A stretch of 27,873 nucleotides of DNA from the IMG/VR virus record IMGVR_UViG_2778261450_000008, positions 1-27,873 of that record; one strand, given 5' to 3'. The stretch is from a virus (Duplodnaviria > Heunggongvirae > Uroviricota > Caudoviricetes). Each line of letters starts with the position of its first letter. The first letter of the stretch is position 1. The notes under the pieces are model-generated. The model worked only from the letters and a program-made list of their open reading frames with translations. It was not told the DNA's origin and searched no databases. Of the stretch, positions 1 to 23,742 are shown one piece after another. The position numbers and the translations under genes are program-made.

Positions 1-933
1 ATGGACAACGACAAAATTGATCAACACAGCGACGAAATTGAAGTTGAGAGCGAAGAAAAAGAGCGCGGCAAAAAAATAGAAATAGATGAAGACCGACTCC
101 CCTCCCGGGCGATGGCAATTCATGAGCATATCCGCCAGGATGGTGAAAAAGAGCTGGAACGCGACGCAATGGCGCTACTGTGGTCAGCCATTGCGGCGGG
201 TCTGTCGATGGGCGCTTCGCTACTGGCAAAAGGGATATTTCATGTCGAACTGGAAGGAGTGCCAGGCAGCTTCTTACTGGAGAATCTCGGTTATACCTTT
301 GGTTTTATTATCGTCATTATGGCCCGCCAGCAATTATTTACCGAAAACACCGTGACTGCGGTACTACCCGTCATGCAAAAACCGACAATGAGCAACGTCG
401 GCTTACTTATGCGATTATGGGGCGTCGTGCTGCTGGGTAATATTCTCGGGACAGGTATTGCTGCATGGGCATTTGAATATATGCCTATCTTCAATGAAGA
501 AACTCGCGATGCATTTGTCAAAATCGGCATGGATGTGATGAAGAACACCCCCAGCGAGATGTTTGCCAACGCGATCATTTCCGGCTGGCTGATCGCCACT
601 ATGGTTTGGATGTTTCCTGCTGCGGGTGCGGCAAAGATTGTGGTGATTATATTGATGACCTGGCTTATTGCACTGGGTGACACCACCCACATCGTTGTCG
701 GTTCTGTTGAAATCCTCTATCTGGTGTTTAACGGCACGCTGCACTGGAGCGATTTCATCTGGCCCTTCGCACTACCTACTTTAGCGGGGAACATCTGCGG
801 CGGCACCTTTATCTTCGCGTTAATGAGTCATGCACAGATTCGTAACGACATGAGCAACAAGCGTAAAGCAGAAGCACGCCAAAAAGCAGAACGTGCGGAA
901 AACATTAAGAAAAATGATAAAAACCCAGCATAA
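1..933 (+). CDS. yfdC: Formate/nitrite transporter (FNT) family inner-membrane channel, host gene flanking the prophage
   Basis: 310-aa ORF starting at ATG at position 1; multi-pass hydrophobic protein matching my recollection of E. coli K-12 YfdC, the gene next to argW and the CPS-53 integration site. Not searched. Confidence 0.88.
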   Translation: MDNDKIDQHSDEIEVESEEKERGKKIEIDEDRLPSRAMAIHEHIRQDGEKELERDAMALLWSAIAAGLSMGASLLAKGIFHVELEGVPGSFLLENLGYTFGFIIVIMARQQLFTENTVTAVLPVMQKPTMSNVGLLMRLWGVVLLGNILGTGIAAWAFEYMPIFNEETRDAFVKIGMDVMKNTPSEMFANAIISGWLIATMVWMFPAAGAAKIVVIILMTWLIALGDTTHIVVGSVEILYLVFNGTLHWSDFIWPFALPTLAGNICGGTFIFALMSHAQIRNDMSNKRKAEARQKAERAENIKKNDKNPA

Positions 934-1008: not shown

Positions 1009-1083
1009 GTCCTCTTAGTTAAATGGATATAACGAGCCCCTCCTAAGGGCTAATTGCAGGTTCGATTCCTGCAGGGGACACCA
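1009..1083 (+). tRNA. argW: tRNA-Arg (anticodon CCU); prophage attachment site (attL side)
   Basis: 75-nt sequence GTCCTCTTAGTTAAATGGATATAACGAGCCCCTCCTAAGGGCTAATTGCAGGTTCGATTCCTGCAGGGGACACCA; acceptor stem pairs with the 3' end, CCT anticodon in the loop, GGTTCGATTCC T-arm. An integrase gene follows immediately. Confidence 0.93.
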
Positions 1084-1208: not shown

Positions 1209-2402
1209 GTGGATAAAATAATTTTACCCTCCGGATTTTTACCCATGCTCACCGTTAAGCAGATTGAAGCAGCAAAGCCGAAAGAAAAACCATACCGCCT
1301 TCTCGATGGTAATGGCCTGTACCTTTATGTCCCTGTATCCGGGAAAAAGGTATGGCAGCTTCGCTACAAGATTGACGGTAAGGAGAAAATCCTGACCGTC
1401 GGAAAATATCCGTTTATGACTTTGCAGGAGGCAAGGGATAAGGCATGGACTGCGAGGAAAGACATCTCGGCTGGCATCGATCCGGTAAAGGCGAAAAAGG
1501 CTTCGTCTAACAACAATTCCTTTAGTGCGATTTACAAGGAATGGTACGAGCACAAGAAGCAAGTCTGGTCAGTAGGCTATGCAACTGAACTTGCAAAAAT
1601 GTTTGATGACGACATTTTACCTATCATCGGCGGCCTTGAAATTCAGGATATTGAGCCGATGCAACTTCTGGAAGTAATCCGCAGATTTGAAGATCGCGGT
1701 GCAATGGAGCGAGCAAATAAAGCCCGCAGAAGATGCGGCGAGGTTTTCCGTTACGCTATTGTCACTGGTAGGGCTAAATATAACCCGGCACCTGACCTTG
1801 CTGACGCCATGAAGGGATACCGCAAGAAGAACTTCCCGTTTCTTCCTGCCGACCAGATCCCGGCATTCAACAAAGCACTTGCAACATTTTCAGGAAGTAT
1901 CGTATCGCTCATTGCGACAAAAGTTTTACGCTACACAGCCCTCAGAACAAAAGAGCTTCGTTCCATGCAATGGAAGAACGTCGATTTTGAAAACAGGATT
2001 ATCACCATTGACGCCAGTGTGATGAAGGGACGCAAAATTCATGTGGTTCCGATGTCGGACCAGGTAGTTGAACTTCTCACTACGCTAAGCTCCATCACTA
2101 AACCAGTATCAGAGTTTGTTTTTGCCGGGCGCAACGATAAGAAAAAGCCAATCTGCGAGAACGCGGTGCTACTTGTGATAAAACAAATCGGCTATGAGGG
2201 TCTGGAAAGCGGTCACGGATTCAGGCATGAATTCAGCACGATTATGAACGAGCACGAATGGCCTGCCGACGCCATTGAAGTGCAACTGGCACATGCCAAC
2301 GGCGGTTCTGTGCGCGGGATTTACAACCATGCGCAGTATCTCGATAAACGCAGGGAAATGATGCAATGGTGGGCGGACTGGCTTGATGAAAAGGTGGAGT
2401 GA
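1209..2402 (+). CDS. intS: Prophage tyrosine integrase (site-specific recombinase); likely true start is ATG at 1245
   Basis: The track ORF begins on GTG at 1209. From MLTVKQIEAAKPKEKPYRLLDGNGLYLYV it matches my recollection of CPS-53 IntS. C-terminal HGFRHEF and IYNHAQY are consistent with a tyrosine recombinase catalytic region. It sits directly beside the tRNA. Confidence 0.9.
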   Translation: MDKIILPSGFLPMLTVKQIEAAKPKEKPYRLLDGNGLYLYVPVSGKKVWQLRYKIDGKEKILTVGKYPFMTLQEARDKAWTARKDISAGIDPVKAKKASSNNNSFSAIYKEWYEHKKQVWSVGYATELAKMFDDDILPIIGGLEIQDIEPMQLLEVIRRFEDRGAMERANKARRRCGEVFRYAIVTGRAKYNPAPDLADAMKGYRKKNFPFLPADQIPAFNKALATFSGSIVSLIATKVLRYTALRTKELRSMQWKNVDFENRIITIDASVMKGRKIHVVPMSDQVVELLTTLSSITKPVSEFVFAGRNDKKKPICENAVLLVIKQIGYEGLESGHGFRHEFSTIMNEHEWPADAIEVQLAHANGGSVRGIYNHAQYLDKRREMMQWWADWLDEKVE

Positions 2403-2555: not shown

Positions 2556-2918
2556 ATGTTAAAGCTATTTGCAAAGTACACCTCGATTGGTGTGCTGAAC
2601 ACACTTATACACTGGGTGGTTTTTGGTGTATGTATCTATGTCGCGCATACAAACCAAGCTCTTGCAAACTTCGCAGGTTTTGTTGTGGCTGTGAGTTTTA
2701 GCTTCTTCGCGAATGCAAAATTCACATTCAAAGCATCAACTACAACGATGCGCTACATGTTATATGTCGGGTTCATGGGAACACTGAGTGCAACTGTTGG
2801 ATGGGCTGCTGATAGATGTTCACTTCCTCCAATTGTCACTCTCATCACCTTCTCAGCCATCAGTCTTGTGTGCGGTTTCGTCTATTCAAAGTTCATTGTC
2901 TTTAGGGATGCGAAATGA
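2556..2918 (+). CDS. gtrA: GtrA-family bactoprenol-linked glucose translocase (flippase)
   Basis: 120-aa, four predicted membrane helices, matches my recollection of YfdG/GtrA; first gene of a three-gene operon after int, with a 4-nt overlap with gtrB. Confidence 0.85.
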
Positions 2919-3841
2919 AGATATCTCTTGTAGTTCCTGTCTTCAATGAAGAAGAAGCAATACCAATTTTTTATAAAACGGTACGTGAATTCGAAGAGTT
3001 GAAGCCATACGAAGTGGAAATTGTTTTCATAAATGACGGCAGCAAAGACGCTACGGAGTCAATTATTAATGCTCTGGCTGTTTCAGATCCTCTAGTTGTT
3101 CCGCTGTCATTTACACGAAACTTTGGTAAAGAACCAGCATTATTCGCAGGGTTAGACCATGCAACAGGCGATGCTGTTATTCCAATTGATGTTGACCTGC
3201 AAGACCCGATTGAGGTTATTCCTCATCTTATTGAAAAGTGGCAGGCAGGTGCTGATATGGTGCTTGCTAAACGATCTGACCGCTCAACGGATGGCAGACT
3301 GAAGAGGAAAACCGCCGAGTGGTTCTATAAGCTTCACAATAAAATCAGCAATCCGCAGATCGAGGAAAATGTTGGTGATTTCCGTCTGATGTCTCGTGAA
3401 GTCGTAGAGAACATTAAGCTCATGCCAGAACGCAACCTTTTCATGAAGGGTGTTTTGAGTTGGGTTGGTGGTCGCACTGATATCGTTGATTATGCCCGCG
3501 CAGAACGTGTTGCTGGCAGTACCAAGTTCAACGGATGGAAGTTGTGGAATCTTGCTCTTGAGGGAATTACGAGCTTCTCGACTTTTCCGCTACGTATGTG
3601 GACTTACATCGGCCTTCTCGTCGCTGGCTTAGCATTTACATATGGCGCATGGATGATTCTGGACACTCTGGCGTTTGGAAACCCGGTTAGAGGTTATCCA
3701 TCCCTGCTAGTATCTATACTTTTCCTTGGTGGTATCCAACTCATTGGTATTGGTGTTCTTGGTGAGTACATTGGACGAATTTATATTGAAACAAAGCAAA
3801 GGCCGAAATATCTTTTAAAGAGTTCTAAAAATGAAAAATAA
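2915..3841 (+). CDS. gtrB: GtrB-family bactoprenol glucosyltransferase (GT2 family)
   Basis: 308-aa with an N-terminal GT2 signature (VVPVFNEEE...INDGSKD...DVDLQDP) and C-terminal membrane helices; YfdH/GtrB-like. Confidence 0.88.
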
Positions 3842-5291
3842 CATTAAGATTTACTTATTTATCACATTCTTACTTGCGCTCCCAATTATAATTGCAAATG
3901 TTTACTACAGCGATGATATGAGCAGAGCAATGAGCGGCGTAACTTATTGGGGAATTGATGGTAGACCATTATCAGATAGATTAATGATTATTCTTAATTT
4001 TAACAATCATCTAACTGACTTGGCTCCATTGCCTCTAATAATAGCATGTTTGCTATTGTCTATTTCATTTTATCTATTTCACATTAAATTATTTAATTCA
4101 GATAATCATTATCTTTTTTTACCGTTGTCATTTTTATTAAGTCCATTTATAATCGAACCTCTATCATACAGGTTTGATAGCTTAACCATCTCAGCTTCGA
4201 TATTTTTTGCATTTGCATTTATTTGTCTAAACTATAAAAACACGGTAATTTCATTTATTTTACATTCTAGCTTTATAGTTATCTTATTTTCATTTTACCA
4301 AGCATCTATTAATATAGTTTTTATATTAATCTCTATAGAAATGTTTGTTAACATAAAGAATAATAAAGAGCCAACACACATAATAAAGTCAATTGCATTT
4401 CGAATTATCGAAGTATTGGTTGGCGCTGTTATCTATATGAGGGTTGTACTGCCGTTAACTCATGTTAATGACAATAGTCAAAATCACCCAGGAGTTGCCA
4501 CAAATATTATAGATGTAATTCATAAGAACTTTATTGCGTATTATGATTTCTACACTAGAAATATAATCCCTGAGCATGGGAGTGAATTATTAATTGGTAG
4601 TTTTATTGTATCATTTGCATTTGCCATTAAATTGGTTTTTGTTTACATTAAAAAACACAAGTGTAATGCTGCTGTTTTTTTATCTTTGATGGCAGTGTTA
4701 TCATTACCTTTGACTTTTATATCATCAATGATTTCATTACTTCTCCTTGAAAACACTCTAACAACTTTTGCAAGGGTTTATATTGGGTTTAATGGTCTTT
4801 TTTTATTCATCTTCACCCTTTTATATTTGGGAATAAATAACACAAGAATTGTCAACGGTATATTTTTAATATTCCTTTTTTATATAATTACTCTTTTTTA
4901 TTCATATGGAAATGCTTTGCGAGCACAAGATGATAAAAATAAATACATTGCTGAAATTATTGGGCTAGCGTTAAAAAACATACCCGAAAATAGTGTTAAT
5001 GTTATGTTTAATGGTAGTTCACCAAAATCCCCTATACTACTTAATTCAGAATTAAATTATCCACTATTCAAAACAATAGTACTCGACTACTTCTATAACT
5101 GGTATGGCTCTCATGTATACCTCAAGATTAGAGGAGTAAATCAAAATTATCCTGATTTTTCCAGTAAAGAAGTATCTATGTTCATGAAGGACTATTGTAA
5201 ATCAACACTAATTTATTCATCTAATGATATTAAAATTTATCGTGATAATGAGAATGTAATGGTGAGTTTTGATGATTCTTTATGTAAATAA
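3831..5291 (+). CDS. GtrC-type serotype-specific O-antigen glucosyltransferase (polytopic membrane protein)
   Basis: 486-aa, very hydrophobic, strongly AT-rich codon usage, third position of the gtr operon and overlapping the gtrB stop. The specificity subunit is normally the most divergent and most recently acquired. Confidence 0.7.
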
Positions 5292-5387: not shown

Positions 5388-7193
5388 CTAAATTAGTTTA
5401 ACATCTACATTTCCTGCCGTTATCGGATCTTCAAGAACAGATGCTATGAATCTTACGACTGTGACAGCGCCAGTACCACCATAAACATATCCTTGAATTA
5501 GGTTTGGTGTTGTAGAAGAATCTCGACGAAAGTTAGATGAATTTACTGTTATGTACAAATTAAATGAATTTGTGCCATTGTTCTCAAACCTAAATATTGG
5601 CAAAGAAATTGGTGGATTTGCTGGGACAACCTGAAATTGACATCCATTTATCACCATTGTACCGTCATAAATAGATGGCGAAGCTTGGACTACTGCTATT
5701 CTTTCCCCCTTTACATTCTCACTTCCACAACTATTCATTGTTATTCCATGAGGGTTATTGAAAAGATAAGCTCTTGATATTGTCTCAGTAGTACCAGACA
5801 TAGGAAATATAGAATCAGCAGTACAACAATTTAGTGTTGTGTACTGTTGAGCGTCAATTTCAAAACCAATTTGATAATTAACAACTCCCACCTGGTCTAG
5901 AAGATTACTTGTTCCAGAAAGGTTATATATACCATCCCTCACTTTACCTAAATAAAAACCAGTAAACTGCCCAATAGCCAAACCTAAAAAACCGCACCGT
6001 TCAAATATATTTGAGAAGCAATCTTCACCCCAAAAACCATAATACCCACATTCTACACGCAAGTCTCTTAACAAACTTGAAGCCATGTAAGGAGAGTATA
6101 TTCCATATGTTGGTTGATTATTTCTATCTATAATTTCATGACGTCTTAAAGTAACACCTTGTATCTCTACGCCTGTAGCATAGTTATCACTCTCAACACC
6201 ATCTACAACGAATTTTTTTGGAAGAATAATCAGCAGTGCATCCACTGAGACTCCAGAAATTATGGTGTTCGCGTTATTTGTTGTTTTAGAGATAATCGTC
6301 TTATTTTGACCTTGACCTATGATTCCAGACCATGACTTTACAACAGGACTTTCGGAGGTTAGATATTCACCTGACATAAAATGAATAGGGGTATTATTAT
6401 CATATCCATATGATAAAGCCTTTGATATTGCAGAGGCGTTGTCAAAATCATTTATCGGTTTTGCTCCAAAATACTCTACCCATATCTCACCATCAACAAC
6501 CCTCCTCCAAGCAAATTTACCTGAACTTGGAACAATAACAATCCCTCCATCATCGGCAATCTGTGATGTGCTATTGTCGAAAGACTGGAAGTAACCACCG
6601 CCATAATGTTTTTCAGTTGCTGTAGCACTTGCTGCTGAAGCTACATAGACAATTTCTCCAGCAACTAATGGTATTGAATCCCTCAGCGCATCTAAATTGA
6701 GAAAGTTGCCTATGTGGCGAAAGCCATCATCAGCAGCCAAGTCACTTCTCAACGTATCTATTTTATGGGCATTATTGTCAAGAGCATCTTTGACAGTTTC
6801 ATCTCCATAACCAACCAGAGATGCGCCATCAGGGCCAGAAAGCTCAGCCCTTAACTGATCTGGAGAATATTTCAGTAGATCAGGATAATAGAATTGTTGT
6901 GCGCCATACGCATCATATACAGCCATGGAGTGATTCTGTACAGTTACGAACTTGGTAATCTGTCCGTTATATACGGGGTAACCAGCAGCATTAATGATGA
7001 TTGGTTGCGAAACAGGAACGTGAGAACCGTCTTCGTTCTCTATATAAACCTGAATCTGGTTTTCAGGATTTACCGGGTCAGTGTCAATTTTACCGATATA
7101 AATTTTGCCATTGGCTACAGCTTTAAAAGAACGAGCCATAGTGAAGAGTTGAGAAGGCATGCTTACCACAACATTTGCGGTGATATCTGACAT
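5388..7193 (-). CDS. Tailspike protein: P22-type N-terminal head-binding domain fused to a distinct receptor-binding (probable polysaccharide depolymerase) domain
   Basis: The track ORF starts at 7241 but a GGAG Shine-Dalgarno precedes the ATG at 7193. From there [46 protein letters not shown]... closely matches my recollection of the P22 gp9 N-terminus. The remainder does not match P22 and its 3' part is visibly AT-rich. Confidence 0.85.
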
Positions 7194-7314
7194 TTCATTG
7201 CTCCAGACGAATGATATGATGCAACCATGATTTGATTGCATACCGAAATGGTACTATTGAGTATTTATCCAGTAGGTTACGATGCCATTCCACCCAACTG
7301 GTGAGGCATCAAGG
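7194..7314. promoter_or_regulatory. Divergent intergenic region between tailspike and mnt; candidate promoter/operator
   Basis: 121-bp AT-rich spacer between two divergent starts. It contains TTGATT (7233-7238), a TACC-N5-GGTA inverted repeat (7241-7253) and TATTGA/TATTTA elements. Inferred from position only. Confidence 0.3.
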
Positions 7315-7575
7315 ATGTACAGCAAATACGACGAGGCGCAGTTTCACTTGAGACTTCCGCATGAACTTCACGCGAAAATTAAACAGCGCGCGAAGATGAA
7401 TAACAGGTCACTGAACTCAGAGATAATTGCAGCGATTGAAGAATCATTGGCTAAACAAAGCTTTGCATCAGTTTACATTGACGATGCAGAGCGTATGGCA
7501 GAACAACAATCTGATATGGTTAAGAAAATTGTCTTTGATACGCTCAAAGAGCTATATAAAAAAGACAGCAGCTAA
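7315..7575 (+). CDS. mnt: Mnt-like ribbon-helix-helix repressor (Arc/Mnt family); alternative start at 7282
   Basis: C-terminus DAERMAEQQSDMVKKIVFDTLKELYKK matches my recollection of P22 Mnt (DAERLADEQSELVKKMVFDTLKDLYKK); the N-terminal RHH region aligns from MYSKYDEAQFHLRLP. No arc or ant ORF is adjacent. Confidence 0.75.
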   Translation: MYSKYDEAQFHLRLPHELHAKIKQRAKMNNRSLNSEIIAAIEESLAKQSFASVYIDDAERMAEQQSDMVKKIVFDTLKELYKKDSS

Positions 7576-7595
7576 CCATCAGTTACGGAGGATTT

Positions 7596-7673
7596 ATGCA
7601 AAGAGATATGCTGAATATTGCGTTATACATATTTGGTTTTTGCACGTTCCTGGTGTTTGCGAAGCTATTCTGA
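7596..7673 (+). CDS. Candidate 25-aa hydrophobic membrane peptide (MQRDMLNIALYIFGFCTFLVFAKLF)
   Basis: ATG preceded by GGAGG at ideal spacing (acGGAGGatttATG), 20 nt after the mnt stop; single predicted transmembrane helix; its 3' end overlaps the gp16-like gene on the opposite strand. Too short for the supplied track. Confidence 0.35.
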   Translation: MQRDMLNIALYIFGFCTFLVFAKLF

Positions 7674-9662
7674 CAACGCATCAGACTTGGCACCCTGAGT
7701 CAGGGCGTTAATGGCCTTTTGCGCCTGCTGCATGGCTTTCTCAAACGCTGTTGATCCGCGTGGGGTGTTTGCCATTCGGAGCATTGCATTTCTGAATGGC
7801 TCGCTCTCATAGGCGCGAGTAAGAAGTCCGTAGCTTACCGCTGCGCCAGTTGTCGCCGGGTTCATTGCCGTCCCATATCCGATAATGAACGGGATGGTTT
7901 GCTGCCCTGTTGGTGTTGTTACTGCTGCTTTTGCAGCCTGCTGCGTGGATTGCAGGTAGTTTTTCAATCCTTTCAGATAAGCGGCTTCATGACCTTTAAA
8001 TGTGATGCCAGTCTGGTTTTGCAGGATATTAAGCTGCCGAAGGAACTGGTCAGGGGATCCGCCAGATTTCTCCATCGCCTTTCCAATGATGCCATTGCGC
8101 ATTTGCGCCCTGCCAACACGACCAACTGAGTTATACAGCGTCTTAATTTCCGATTTGTTCTTGCTGAATAGCATGTTGTTGACAACTTCCGGCGTCAGGT
8201 CGCCTTTCATGAGAACATTCTTCAGCCTGGTATTCTTTAGTTTCGCAGCTTCGTCAGCATAGACGGCATTGGCCTGCTGATATTTACGGAGGGTATCGTT
8301 GCCAAGATTCTGACCAATGGCACCATTGATATCGTCAGTCATTGCCTTGTAAACGCGCTGAATGGCAGCATCGGAACGGTTTGGTAACACTGGTCGCTCA
8401 CCCTTTACGTCCATTCTGAACTGGCTGCGCAGATCGCTTAATTGCTTCAAATCCAGATTTACCGGACCATCAGGACCAGCATTGCGAACAAGCTCATCAC
8501 GATAGGACTGAAGTTTTGAAATAGTCTCGTTATCAGCAACCTTACCAAGCTTCTGCAGGTTAGATATTTCTGTATCAATCTGCTGAATTGCTCGCGCAGG
8601 CTGAATGTTTACTCCAGCCATAGCATTCTGAACCTGCTCCAGTCGATTACCGGCGGCACGACGAATTCCTGATGTTTTCGCTTTAAGGCTGTCAATAACA
8701 ACCGCTGGATCATACTCGCCGAATTTATCAGCAAATCTCTGCACCAACTGACTTCTCGCTTCCTGTTGCGTTGCTCTCATTCCGCTTGTGCCAGCCAGTG
8801 GTATATTTTCTGCTGTAGTCTGCGCCATTTTCCCGACGCGGGAAGTAGGCTGTAACAGGTCTGTGGTGTGCAGAGGAACTCCTTCACGCTCTGCAAATCT
8901 GATAGCCTGCTGCGCTTCTGGCGCAATAGAACCACGAACGCCACGATAAGCAGCACCTAATCCACGTCCGGCAGCGTTAATAGCACCGCCAGCCAGCACA
9001 CCAACGCCTAAATCGGTGGCGAGTGCTTCCGCATCATCTTTCGCACTATTTGCAGCAAGTGATCCAACTGCGTTTTCAGCGAGAAGGCGAGTTGCCCCCT
9101 GAGCAATTCGACCAGCAAGTGTTGGTGCCTGTGTTGCCGCTCTCTCAACGCCAGCAGGAGTGAGGTAAGGCAATGCTTCAGCAAATACCCTTCCCTCTGT
9201 CGTTTGTGGAGTCATCGCGCCTTGCTGAAGGCCAAAGTCCTGCTCTAATCCCTGCGTTGTTACTCGTGGCGCTGGTTGATATGTACCATCGCCAATGCCG
9301 AGTTTACCGCCAGCCCAAGCCGCCGCGCTTGTTACAGCATCGGCAACTGATGCAGGTATGTTTGCCACGTTCACGCCAGCCTGCACCAGTCCGCGACCAG
9401 TCTCTTTCACTGCTTCACCAAGATCAGACATAAATCCACTTTGCTGTGGTTGTAGCTGTGCTACTGGTTGCTGTGTCTCCACTGGCTGCACAGATGGCAA
9501 TGGATAGGCTGCATAGAAAGCTTGCTTAGCCTGCTCTGCATTTTCTCCGGCTTGCGGGGCCACGACTTCATTGAAGTATTGCTCCTGAGCCTGCGCTTTT
9601 TGTTCTGGTGCTAACGCCTGATACTGTGGAGAGGCGATAACATCTTTCCATGCTTTAGCCAT
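7665..9662 (-). CDS. Ejection (internal virion) protein, P22 gp16 positional homologue
   Basis: 665-aa Ala/Gln/Gly-rich protein, last of three consecutive genes in the position of P22 7-20-16; its ATG overlaps the stop of the upstream gene (TAATG). Assigned by synteny and composition. Confidence 0.65.
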   Translation of the reverse strand: MAKAWKDVIASPQYQALAPEQKAQAQEQYFNEVVAPQAGENAEQAKQAFYAAYPLPSVQPVETQQPVAQLQPQQSGFMSDLGEAVKETGRGLVQAGVNVANIPASVADAVTSAAAWAGGKLGIGDGTYQPAPRVTTQGLEQDFGLQQGAMTPQTTEGRVFAEALPYLTPAGVERAATQAPTLAGRIAQGATRLLAENAVGSLAANSAKDDAEALATDLGVGVLAGGAINAAGRGLGAAYRGVRGSIAPEAQQAIRFAEREGVPLHTTDLLQPTSRVGKMAQTTAENIPLAGTSGMRATQQEARSQLVQRFADKFGEYDPAVVIDSLKAKTSGIRRAAGNRLEQVQNAMAGVNIQPARAIQQIDTEISNLQKLGKVADNETISKLQSYRDELVRNAGPDGPVNLDLKQLSDLRSQFRMDVKGERPVLPNRSDAAIQRVYKAMTDDINGAIGQNLGNDTLRKYQQANAVYADEAAKLKNTRLKNVLMKGDLTPEVVNNMLFSKNKSEIKTLYNSVGRVGRAQMRNGIIGKAMEKSGGSPDQFLRQLNILQNQTGITFKGHEAAYLKGLKNYLQSTQQAAKAAVTTPTGQQTIPFIIGYGTAMNPATTGAAVSYGLLTRAYESEPFRNAMLRMANTPRGSTAFEKAMQQAQKAINALTQGAKSDALSE

Positions 9663-17463: not shown

Positions 17464-19629
17464 TTATTGAGGTGTCTCGGCTACTCCGCCGGAGGGGATT
17501 TGAACTTGACGCATAAGATTCGCGAAATCCATGCGTTGTGAATGAGTCTGGTCTGCATCTTTAAGAAGCAGCTCAGCGTTAGCACGAGCATCTTTGCTGC
17601 GCTGTTGCTGGAATTGACCTACGAGCTTGAGGTACTCACGCAGTTCTGCCTGCTTGTCGAGGTCCATATTGTTGAAGATTTCTGCAATCTTCGCGGCGTT
17701 GAGTTGGTTTTGGGCTTCAACCTTGGCAGCTTCAACCTGAATCTGCGCCTGTTGGTTCTCTGCCTTGAGCAATTCAGCCTGACCTTGCAGAAGGATACCC
17801 TGCGCCTGAATTTGCTCTGCTGATGGCTGCTGCGGCTGTTGTTGTGCCTGCTGTACCATCTCCATCTCTTCAGGTGTTTCTGGTTTCTTCAGCCCCATCA
17901 TCACCAGTTGCTTGTTCGCGTACTCTCGCATCATCTCAACGCCTTTACCGTCAAGCAGCGTGAAGTATTGCAGCATCAGCATCTGGAACTCTGGAGTACC
18001 TTGCGGAACCTTGGTGAGTAACTCCTGAATCTCTGCGCGGTTCTGTTCCTTCATGCTCTGGAAGGATGGCCCAACGTCTGTATAGCACTCATAGCGACCG
18101 CGAATGTCGTTGAGTGTGACCACATTACCGGACTGGTAATCTACAACTTGCGCGTAGAGTTGAACGTCTTTCTCGCTACCATCTTCAAGTGTCAGCGTTA
18201 CATGACGAGGAACGTCATAAATATCGTTGACCATTGAGGCATAAATCTCGCCATCACGTCGCATTGCGGTAGCCAGGTTATCCTGAAACACGTATGTCTC
18301 AAGGTCTGCCCGCATGTTCAGTTGATTGACGGTATCGAAAGCGACCTGAGAGTTTGCCGCCTGCGCATCCACGCCAAGACTAGCCACCTCTTTCACTGCG
18401 TTGGTGGCAGCCTCAAGCATGTAAGCGTTGGCTTGCGGCACTTCAGGGTTTTCCATGTAGGAGATTGGACCAATCGGCAGGTCGTTACCGTTTTCATCGG
18501 TCCTGTTCTGCAGATAGTACGGATAGTCATCATTTCCACCGTACATGTATTCGTAGTCTTCGATTTGCTCAGGGAAGAAGGTCGGTTTCTTCTTCGGTGA
18601 ACGAGCAACAATATCGGCGTTGAACGACATGATCATGTTACGAAGGCGTTGACCGTCTTTCGTCAGCCTTACCACTCCCTCGTAGCACTCCTTGTCACCA
18701 GCGAATGACCATTCTCCATACACTGGAACGATTGGGATATGCTCTCCGGCTATCTTTTCTCGGTCCTTCAGTATCTGCGTGCAGGTGATGATCGACTTAT
18801 ACACACGACGACGCTTCACCTTGCGCTCTGCTACCTTAATGAATCCACGATTAGCCAGGTCGTCGATAACGTCTTTAATATCCTGCTGGTAATAGCTGAC
18901 TGGCTCACCTGTCAACGGGTCGCGGTAGATGAAGACTTTCTCCTTCTTCTCTTCTACCTCGTAATACTCAGCGACGTAGACGACATCATTCGATACCCAC
19001 GGAAACTGCCATGTGTCGTTCGGATTCTGGAAAGATGGCAGGGTGTCAGGATCAATACCGTAATCCTCTGCGAACTCTTTCCAGCCATTGCGCGACAAGG
19101 CGTTAATCACCGTGCAGTGCTTAGCGTCGCTCTTATCCATCTGCTTGCTGTTGGCGTCCCATATGACGTGTGAGCAGGCTTCATGAATTGGCAGGCGTCG
19201 AATTACCTGATTGTTGCTTGTTGGGTCGTTGTCTTCGTACTGTGTGACCAGGCGCCATGCACCAACGCCGGACTCTATCTGCTCACGAACGCCAACGTTA
19301 ACGGCAATCTTTGCCGTGTTATGGCGCATATCAGTACGATACATCCCCATCAACACATCGGCTGCATCAGGATTAGCGCCGTCTTTGGGTCTGAATAGAA
19401 CGTCGATAGGGTTCCGACGCATCTCTGCGACCAGTTTCCTGACCACCGGGCGAACAACATCGAATTGTCCGCGATATTGCAGGGTGGTGTAGTTTGATAG
19501 CCAGTCATCCCATTGCGACACTCGGCTAAAATACAGGTCATTTGTCGCCTCGGTTCTGGCTTCATCGCTCGCCATCCAGTCCGCGTCAAACTTGCACAGA
19601 ATGGAATTGAGTCTGTTTTCGTCGGCCAT
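17464..19629 (-). CDS. Portal protein, P22 gp1 homologue
   Basis: 721-aa; [45 protein letters not shown]... is highly similar to my recollection of P22 portal, with the Gln-rich C-terminal barrel region. Confidence 0.93.
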
Positions 19630-23074: not shown

Positions 23075-23593
23075 TCACTTTGGCAGTCCGGGGATCGATA
23101 TTTGCGCCTGCTGCTCAAGCCTTTCGATTCTTGCTATGAGTTGCGGTTTTTTGATCCTGCCCCAGCGGTTCAGCAAGCGTCCTGACATACTGGCAACATC
23201 CTTTTCCTTCATGAACTCCAGCATTAACTCGTTGTGCTCTCTTTGGTATGAGTGAGCCATCTCCATCAGCCTGTCACGCATCCAATTAAATGCTTTGATA
23301 AACGCCTCTTTGATGGCGGCAGCTTTTTTGCCGGTAAACGACATGATGATGTACATCGCACCGTCTTTGGAAATTTCATATTCAACATACTGATTACCCT
23401 TGTGTTCATAGGTAACCCGCGAAAAGTTGCTGGTTAGAAATTCATCCGAACAGTCTAGCTTTTCGATTTTCTGAATGATGTGGTGATGCTGCTTGTCGAA
23501 GTAAGCTGCTACCTTGCGGGAGGTTGTGATCACGCGATCACCAGAAACAACCACCATGTCCCGGAACTCGAGATTAGCCAATTGATGATTCAT
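23075..23593 (-). CDS. rha: Rha-family phage regulatory protein
   Basis: The track ORF begins on GTG at 23629; the internal ATG at 23593 with AAGG upstream gives MNHQLANLEFRDMVVVSGDRVITTSRKVAAYFDKQHHHIIQKIEKL, typical of the Rha N-terminal domain, in the usual position between the lysis cassette and terminase. Confidence 0.7.
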   Translation of the reverse strand: MNHQLANLEFRDMVVVSGDRVITTSRKVAAYFDKQHHHIIQKIEKLDCSDEFLTSNFSRVTYEHKGNQYVEYEISKDGAMYIIMSFTGKKAAAIKEAFIKAFNWMRDRLMEMAHSYQREHNELMLEFMKEKDVASMSGRLLNRWGRIKKPQLIARIERLEQQAQISIPGLPK

Positions 23594-23742
23594 AGCGTCT
23601 TTACCTTTTAGAAAGTGAGCCTGTCTCACAGAAAAGCCGTCCCGAGATGGTCGCCACCATATACGGCAGTTCTCAGGCTCAACTTTCTGAAAGGCTCGGG
23701 TGATGTAATATGCGCGTGAGATGCGCTGTGAAATTCAGATGT

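Follow-up and report, generated by a model that had tools for sequence, protein, structure and literature searches.

Does an mnt gene standing alone beside a tailspike gene mark an immI region that has been reduced to its repressor, or a repressor that has been put to another use? We asked this of a 27,873-nt stretch of DNA, analyzed whole and hereafter called the window, in which the initial annotation had left both options open. The same reduced-or-repurposed question was posed for the Mnt-only region of phage L in its 2020 genome paper (PMC8022706). The "ant moron" between genes 16 and 9 is highly variable, ranging from absent (Sf6) to six genes (P22, CUS-3) (PMC2629481), and in ST64T, ST104, and Para1 it contains only mnt and one unknown gene (Villafane et al. 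2008, PMC2629481).

Prophage setting of the mnt locus

The window covers the left part of an E. coli prophage of the P22-like (Lederbergvirus) kind. We place its integration at argW because the left end consists of a host yfdC-like gene and argW, followed by the integrase gene and gtrABC. The genes framing the locus are as follows.

1..933, host DNA, yfdC-like formate/nitrite transporter family gene
1009..1083, host DNA, tRNA-Arg(CCT), argW
1209..2402, integrase, IntS-type
2556..5291, gtrA/B/C
5388..7193, minus strand, tailspike gene, identified from its translation (ATG at 7193), last gene of the late operon
7665..9662, minus strand, gene 16 homologue (DNA transfer/ejection protein; PHROG 770, 9e-239), late-operon gene upstream of the moron

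An int gene adjacent to attL at argW is the arrangement of Sf6/CPS-53. The late operon runs on the minus strand and comprises the tailspike gene, the gene 16 homologue, counterparts of genes 20, 7, 14, 26, and 10, and then head and terminase genes; past it lie a Rha-like gene, lysis genes, a Q-type antiterminator gene, and the nin region. The window closes in the replication and nin region, and the early region of the prophage lies outside it. The tailspike N terminus is a P22 head-binding domain (Pfam PF09008, 7.3e-66).

Around mnt the local order is gp16(−), orf25(+), mnt(+), tailspike(−). The mnt gene sits between gene 16 and the tailspike gene in the orientation opposite to the late operon, which is the arrangement of an Mnt-only ant moron such as those of L and ST160. 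Among sequenced phages, IME10 (95%) and Sf101 (94% over the mnt region) come nearest to the window. Sf6 aligns with it on both sides of mnt and is missing the mnt segment itself.

An Mnt-type repressor gene under purifying selection

7315..7575, plus strand, mnt, 86 aa, with an N-terminal ribbon-helix-helix DNA-binding domain and a C-terminal tetramerization helix

Judged by its domain matches, the 86-aa ORF is a true Mnt that combines an Arc-type ribbon-helix-helix with the Mnt tetramerization helix. The N-terminal domain matches Pfam Arc RHH (PF03869, 1.1e-14), and the C-terminal part matches Pfam Repressor_Mnt (PF11423, 3.4e-14), the helix that distinguishes Mnt from Arc. Structural templates agree, with residues 6 to 79 aligned to PDB 1mnt (7.9e-19) and the tetramerization part matched by 1qey (1.7e-8). 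The window protein shares 49% identity with P22 Mnt and is a mosaic of a class A N-terminal domain (classes defined below) and a P22/Gally-like tetramerization helix. We place its start at 7315 from the alignment with P22, with a GGTGAGG ribosome-binding site 8 nt upstream. An in-frame ATG at 7282 is an unlikely start, as it overlaps the −10 hexamer, and its counterpart in L-type phages is followed by a stop codon.

Across 54 distinct alleles, mnt has a pN/pS of 0.146, indicating purifying selection, and the ORF is disrupted in only 2 of about 90 loci (one truncated, one extended by a deletion fusion). The protein cluster holds 681 member sequences, and the commonest allele occurs on at least 1,000 contigs. 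The locus was found in 473 of 5,426 complete E. coli genomes, with at least 80% of positions 7150 to 7700 covered in 141 of them. The low pN/pS, the few broken ORFs, the large cluster, and the spread in E. coli argue for a functional protein rather than debris. Orthologues carry the name "partition protein ATPase" in RefSeq (Sf101 gp14; L001 4379..4672) and in PHROG 795, which looks like a misannotation that has spread, the protein being an 86-aa ribbon-helix-helix repressor.

Arc, ant, and other immI parts are missing from the window

The spacer between the divergent mnt and tailspike genes (7194..7314) measures 121 bp, and its longest ORFs are 20 to 39 aa. The report of an orphan Mnt with neither arc nor ant in this spacer was borne out as far as it could be checked, by the absence of ORFs longer than 39 aa and by negative tblastn searches. 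P22 Arc, Ant, SieA, and orf59a found no tblastn match in the window, in about 90 related loci, or in the complete Sf101 and IME10 genomes, except that the Arc query matches mnt alone in the window. Eight Ant-type or associated proteins likewise gave no match in the window, IME10, or Sf101; this panel comprised P22 Ant, the Bro-N/P22_AR_C Ant of L129 and HS, the JEP4 "KilA" and "Rha" proteins, the CUS-3 ant product, a 96-aa VSe13 protein, and two Serratia proteins. Arc and a second Mnt-like protein, searched alongside the panel, also returned nothing in the window, IME10, or Sf101. The search for arc and ant elsewhere in the prophage thus yielded none in the window. We infer a prophage-wide lack because the complete Sf101 and IME10 genomes are without both, the window itself not including the early region. 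A Rha-like ORF at 23075..23629 sits where rha usually lies in P22, with no operator close by.

The noncoding parts of immI are also missing. Neither sar nor any other known RNA was matched by Rfam at E-values up to 1 between 6900 and 7900, no ant 5′ region is present for sar to pair with, and symmetry is gone from the right half of the Arc operator. The locus therefore departs from a complete P22-type immI in arc, ant, a strong Omnt-overlapping Pant, and sar.

A putative operator at the position of P22 Omnt

7239..7255, strand not assigned, putative Mnt operator of class A, CATACCGAAATGGTACT, core TACC-N5-GGTA, in the P22 Omnt columns
7219..7241, minus strand, hairpin in the tailspike leader, 9-bp stem with arms ATGCAACCA and TGATTGCAT and a 5-nt loop, abutting the operator, found by repeat search

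The initial annotation had singled out the inverted repeat TACC-N5-GGTA (7241..7253) as a candidate operator. Its 4-bp arms alone are weak evidence, and the window has one further copy of the bare 8-base pattern, at 18126 inside the portal gene; the repeat derives its meaning from its position. We aligned the DNA upstream of mnt from the window, Sf101, IME10, JEP4, VSe13, E. coli HS, other E. coli prophages, L, Gally, ST160, epsilon34, and P22. In this alignment the 17-mer shares columns with the annotated P22 Omnt AGGTCCACCGTGGACCT, and in every aligned phage ATTG, the start of the Pmnt −35, directly follows the operator. The comparison with P22 and P22-like immI regions that the initial annotation had proposed accordingly gave a homologous mnt, a 17-mer in the Omnt columns, and missing arc and ant.

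Even with 3 mismatches allowed, the window holds a single copy of the full 17-mer. The complete Sf101 genome likewise has only one, and in either sequence the next-best sites depart from it at 4 positions. There is therefore no second target in cis. Operator symmetry holds at 4 of 8 position pairs in the window and at 6 of 8 in JEP4-type prophages. Close relatives vary in the operator about as much as elsewhere in the spacer (0.24 versus 0.31 variant events per position), which leaves the argument to deeper comparisons. There, the class A 17-mer is kept in Escherichia, Salmonella VSe13, and Serratia, where flanking DNA has diverged, and from E. coli to Serratia it is kept together with the Mnt N-terminal domain. 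These comparative data are good evidence for a working, still putative, operator; positional homology to P22 Omnt and covariation with the Mnt recognition residues (see below) make the proposed candidate a likely one. In a Citrobacter representative genome (L220 3501..3752), codon 5 of mnt is a stop and the core of the operator reads AGTA in place of GGTA; gene and operator there appear to decay together.

Two further repeats lie in the spacer. About 25 nt separate the tailspike leader hairpin (−13.6 kcal/mol) from the start codon of the tailspike gene; with a z score of −1.2, the hairpin is not significant alone. Hairpins of unrelated sequence occupy the same position in L/P22 (GCCGCAGC..GCTACGGC) and Sf6 (CCGGACA..TGTCCGG), with z scores of −3.6 and −3.4, respectively, and none of these leader hairpins is followed by a U-run; the hairpin may be a conserved structure for tailspike mRNA stability or processing. 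On the other side of the operator, an inverted repeat GATGCC-N18-GGCATC (7281..7310) extends from the Pmnt −10 to the mnt ribosome-binding site. Class A and B phages carry it unchanged, Serratia nearly so (GATGCT), and P22 not at all; its inner stem shows one compensatory change between classes (CACC/GGTG versus CACTT/AAGTG).

Operator classes pair with recognition residues

Aligned phages fall into three operator classes, each paired with its own N-terminal β-strand sequence.

Class P22: P22, epsilon34, and Pluralibacter and Pectobacterium prophages; β-strand ARDDPHFNFRMP; operator AGGTCCACCGTGGACCT, GGTCCAC
Class B: L, ST160, and Gally; β-strand GRDDPQFNLRLP; operator AAGACCACGGTGGTCTT, AGACCAC
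Class A: the window, Sf101, IME10, JEP4, VSe13, HS, and Serratia; β-strand YSKYDEAQFHLRL; operator CATACCGAAA[T/C]GGTAC[T/G], ATACCGA

Common to all three are the CC/GG operator positions and Arg10 (Arg13 in the window), and we link the retained arginine to these shared positions. The PDB alignment places P22 His6, Asn8, and Arg10 opposite Gln9, His11, and Arg13 of the window protein; P22 Arg2, immediately N-terminal to the aligned block, lies across from Tyr5 or Lys4. Knight and Sauer reportedly established in 1989 that R2, H6, N8, and R10 of P22 Mnt contact bases. Three of these four positions presumably differ in the window Mnt (R2, H6, and N8 replaced by Y/K, Q, and H), with R10 kept. Class A, as an operator and as a set of recognition residues, appears to be undescribed in the literature searched.

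Promoters in the spacer

7257..7283, plus strand, Pmnt counterpart, −35 TTGAGT (7257 to 7262), 15-bp spacer, −10 TACGAT (7278 to 7283), identified by homology to P22 Pmnt (TTGAGA-17-TATCAT)
7260..7288, minus strand, decayed Pant counterpart, ATGGCA-17-AATACT

We scored promoters with a simple sigma-70 weight matrix built from consensus frequencies, under which the P22 controls reach 16.8 (Pant) and 14.4 (Pmnt) bits. The Pmnt counterpart, with a predicted transcription start near 7290, scores 8.2 bits, a value reached by 30% of spacer shuffles and so not above chance alone. Counterparts with a 17-bp spacer score 10.7 bits in L, 11.8 in Gally, and 9.4 in JEP4-type prophages, and a 2-bp deletion produced the 15-bp spacer in the window's sublineage. 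Given this spacer and score, mnt expression is not evident from the sequence alone.

The Pant counterpart, at 7.0 bits, does not rise above chance (52% of spacer shuffles reach this score). It scores 4.2 bits in L and 5.7 or less in Gally and JEP4-type prophages, and it has collapsed wherever arc and ant are missing. Vershon et al. in 1987 reportedly found that Mnt of P22 helps Pmnt by shutting off the competing Pant; such indirect activation would be inapplicable in the window because Pant has decayed. A consensus promoter scanner found nothing credible over the region. An Mnt-controlled tailspike promoter was also rejected, as a two-strand weight-matrix scan with P22 Pant and Pmnt as controls gave no candidate above the shuffled background.

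A small ORF downstream of mnt

7596..7673, plus strand, orf25, unannotated 25-aa hydrophobic peptide MQRDMLNIALYIFGFCTFLVFAKLF, with a strong GGAGG ribosome-binding site at 7587 to 7591

The last 9 nt of orf25 overlap the gp16 stop. It is intact in nearly all relatives, with synonymous-biased substitutions (pN/pS 0.225), and is shared by Sf6, Gally, 720R6, and 683R2, in each case at the 3′ end of the same gp16 type; orf25 travels with gp16, not with mnt. The peptide is absent from a collection of 15 billion proteins, and the prophage may express it as a small membrane protein. With no terminator predicted in the region, the mnt transcript probably runs on into orf25. The initial annotation had also suggested that Mnt might control the downstream small peptide; cotranscription with orf25 is possible, but the ORF occurs in Sf6 without mnt.

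Distribution of class A mnt and composite morons

Class A and B mnt genes adjoin the tailspike gene in every locus with an identifiable upstream neighbor (the Serratia contig ends there). We examined about 120 class A loci: 80 found in IMG/VR by protein, 23 found there by the operator pattern, and further phage and E. coli records. Among the matches listed, the operator faces arc or ant in none. The pattern matches listed in IMG/VR included 84 in examinable loci, 23 of them real and all beside a tailspike gene; the remaining 61 look like chance matches to the 14-base pattern and have no Ant-type genes nearby. A scan of genome contigs returned 7 loci.

A JEP4-type sublineage has the class A N-terminal domain and operator with a different C terminus. 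Here mnt stands beside the tailspike gene even where a complete, independently regulated Ant module lies just upstream, with its own Arc, a 106-aa Mnt-like repressor, a Bro-N/P22_AR_C or P22-type Ant, and different operators. Such composite morons, in which the Ant module is followed by the convergent class A mnt with its operator and then the tailspike gene, were seen in L129 (5775..8798) and in L152, L100, L122, L124, L156, L219, and L220. Their Ant module contains a Mnt2-like ribbon-helix-helix protein, an Arc-like protein, Ant, and a KilA-like ORF, and similar layouts occur in Citrobacter and apparently in Serratia. The position of JEP4-type mnt beside the tailspike gene, despite a separate Ant module, suggests that the mnt-operator unit may be a separate cassette and not merely what is left of the adjacent module.

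Two other arrangements came to light. Four related phage contigs that are not P22-like (L103 7579..8109, L110, L148, and L164) contain two exact copies of the 16-mer CATACCGAAACGGTAC 515 bp apart, each copy directly after TATATA and upstream of paralogous small ORFs. With no Mnt-like gene around the paired copies in the fetched DNA, they are probably an unrelated operator or a chance match. CUS-3 (L095 3211..3740) has two tandem mnt paralogues, one of the P22 class and one divergent with direct GGTACGCAT repeats upstream; an ant gene is adjacent, and arc is not present.

Reduced immI versus other roles for Mnt

We put it at somewhat better than even that the window carries a minimal ant moron, an immI reduced to mnt plus its own control region, with Mnt regulating its own promoter. 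The chance-level Pant counterpart leads us to read the locus as a reduced immI with a working Mnt that would act on that promoter. In detail, the argW-integrated prophage would make an Mnt tetramer that binds the single 17-bp operator at 7239..7255, abutting the −35 of the mnt promoter; with the operator centered about 43 bp upstream of the predicted Pmnt start, Mnt would set its own level. Its control would extend no further than its own short transcription unit, which probably includes orf25; arc, ant, sar, and a usable Pant are gone. The tailspike would be expressed from the last gene of the late operon, and late transcripts from gene 16 would cross mnt in antisense. Several points count against this reading: the low score and 15-bp spacer of the Pmnt counterpart, the partial symmetry of the operator, its variation among close relatives, and the position of the early region beyond the window. 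In addition, an autoregulator with no other target offers no obvious reason for purifying selection.

Of the two options in the initial annotation, reduction to mnt and a control region is supported, and repurposing for tailspike control is not. Mnt could still tune transcription reaching the tailspike gene, through residual activity of a Pant remnant, a block to RNA polymerase at the operator, or collisions between Pmnt and late transcripts, and a possible effect of the moron on read-through into this gene was raised by Villafane et al. (PMC2629481). We consider this unlikely, and no feature of the sequence calls for it. The operator lies only 46 nt from the tailspike start codon, but the best minus-strand promoter there, at 7.0 versus 16.8 bits for P22 Pant, is at the chance level, related types score lower, and no terminator is predicted in the region. 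Class A and B mnt do stand beside the tailspike gene in every informative locus, even with a separate Ant module upstream; against this, Sf6 has the same tailspike N terminus and no mnt, and P22 deleted for mnt-ant still makes viable phage particles (PMC11016777).

A target outside the prophage would explain purifying selection on a repressor without one in its own genome: an orphan Mnt could protect the lysogen in trans by repressing the antirepressor promoter of an incoming relative with the same operator, so that the resident stays uninduced. Such protection is the established role of Mnt in P22 lysogens (PMC11016777). We rate it slightly below tailspike tuning, as the operator faces arc or ant in 0 of about 120 class A loci among the matches listed, and the Ant modules alongside class A mnt have their own Arc, Mnt2, and different operators. 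Least probable of all is that mnt is an inert remnant of a decaying immI, an option raised by the authors of the phage L study (PMC8022706). The weak promoter with its 15-bp spacer and the lack of an identified target fit a remnant, and decay is documented in the Citrobacter pseudogene and in gene loss from Sf6. Inertness is at odds with a pN/pS of 0.146 over 54 alleles, with disruption in so few loci, and with an operator and N-terminal domain kept from E. coli to Serratia despite diverged flanks, as well as with the distinct operator/residue pairs maintained in separate lineages.

Beyond the minimal moron that we favor, a broader proposal can be advanced only tentatively, and we think it more doubtful than not: class A mnt plus operator would be a self-contained, selectively maintained cassette that does not serve antirepressor control and is tied to the tailspike-leader position, and it would represent a new Mnt recognition class in which Gln9/His11/Arg13 read ATACC half-sites.

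Relation to known systems and significance

The layout is ordinary, not new, having already been described in Salmonella phages and being common in E. coli. As in ST64T, ST104, L, and prophage Para1, mnt lies between gene 16 and the tailspike gene, against the late operon; they also share with the window the absence of arc, ant, and sieA, the palindromic 17-mer (partly symmetric in the window) at the Omnt position beside a Pmnt counterpart, and the decayed Pant. The window differs from them in its recognition residues (YSKYDEAQFHLRL versus GRDDPQFNLRLP), its operator (CATACCGAAATGGTACT versus AAGACCACGGTGGTCTT), its companion gene (a 25-aa ORF on the mnt strand versus the 97-aa orf62 on the late strand), its Pmnt spacer (15 versus 17 bp), and its E. 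coli/Shigella host and argW integration. What sets it apart from described Mnt-only morons is its operator class and the smallest content seen.

With P22 immI, the window has in common the Mnt fold and tetramerization domain (49% identity), an operator (putative in the window) abutting the Pmnt −35, and the position of mnt between gene 16 and gene 9. In contrast to P22, it is without arc, ant, sar, Oarc symmetry, the ant terminator, orf59a, and sieA, and Pant has fallen from 16.8 to 7.0 bits. Sf101, IME10, and E. coli prophages with an "Arc family DNA-binding protein" have essentially the same mnt, spacer, and tailspike N terminus at 94 to 95% nucleotide identity. We see no functional difference between these and the window; Sf101 is without orf25 and has a different gene-16-type protein.

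The current understanding of P22-like phages is unchanged by these results, whose value lies in annotation and in modular genome assembly. The many E. coli "Arc family DNA-binding protein" genes beside tailspike genes are Mnt orthologues for which an operator can now be predicted, and the locus shows how immI shrinks, with arc, ant, and Pant lost and mnt, its operator, and Pmnt kept. If Mnt does have an Ant-independent role, this would answer the question posed for phage L, and class A would be a natural example of altered β-sheet recognition specificity for the Arc/Mnt model system.
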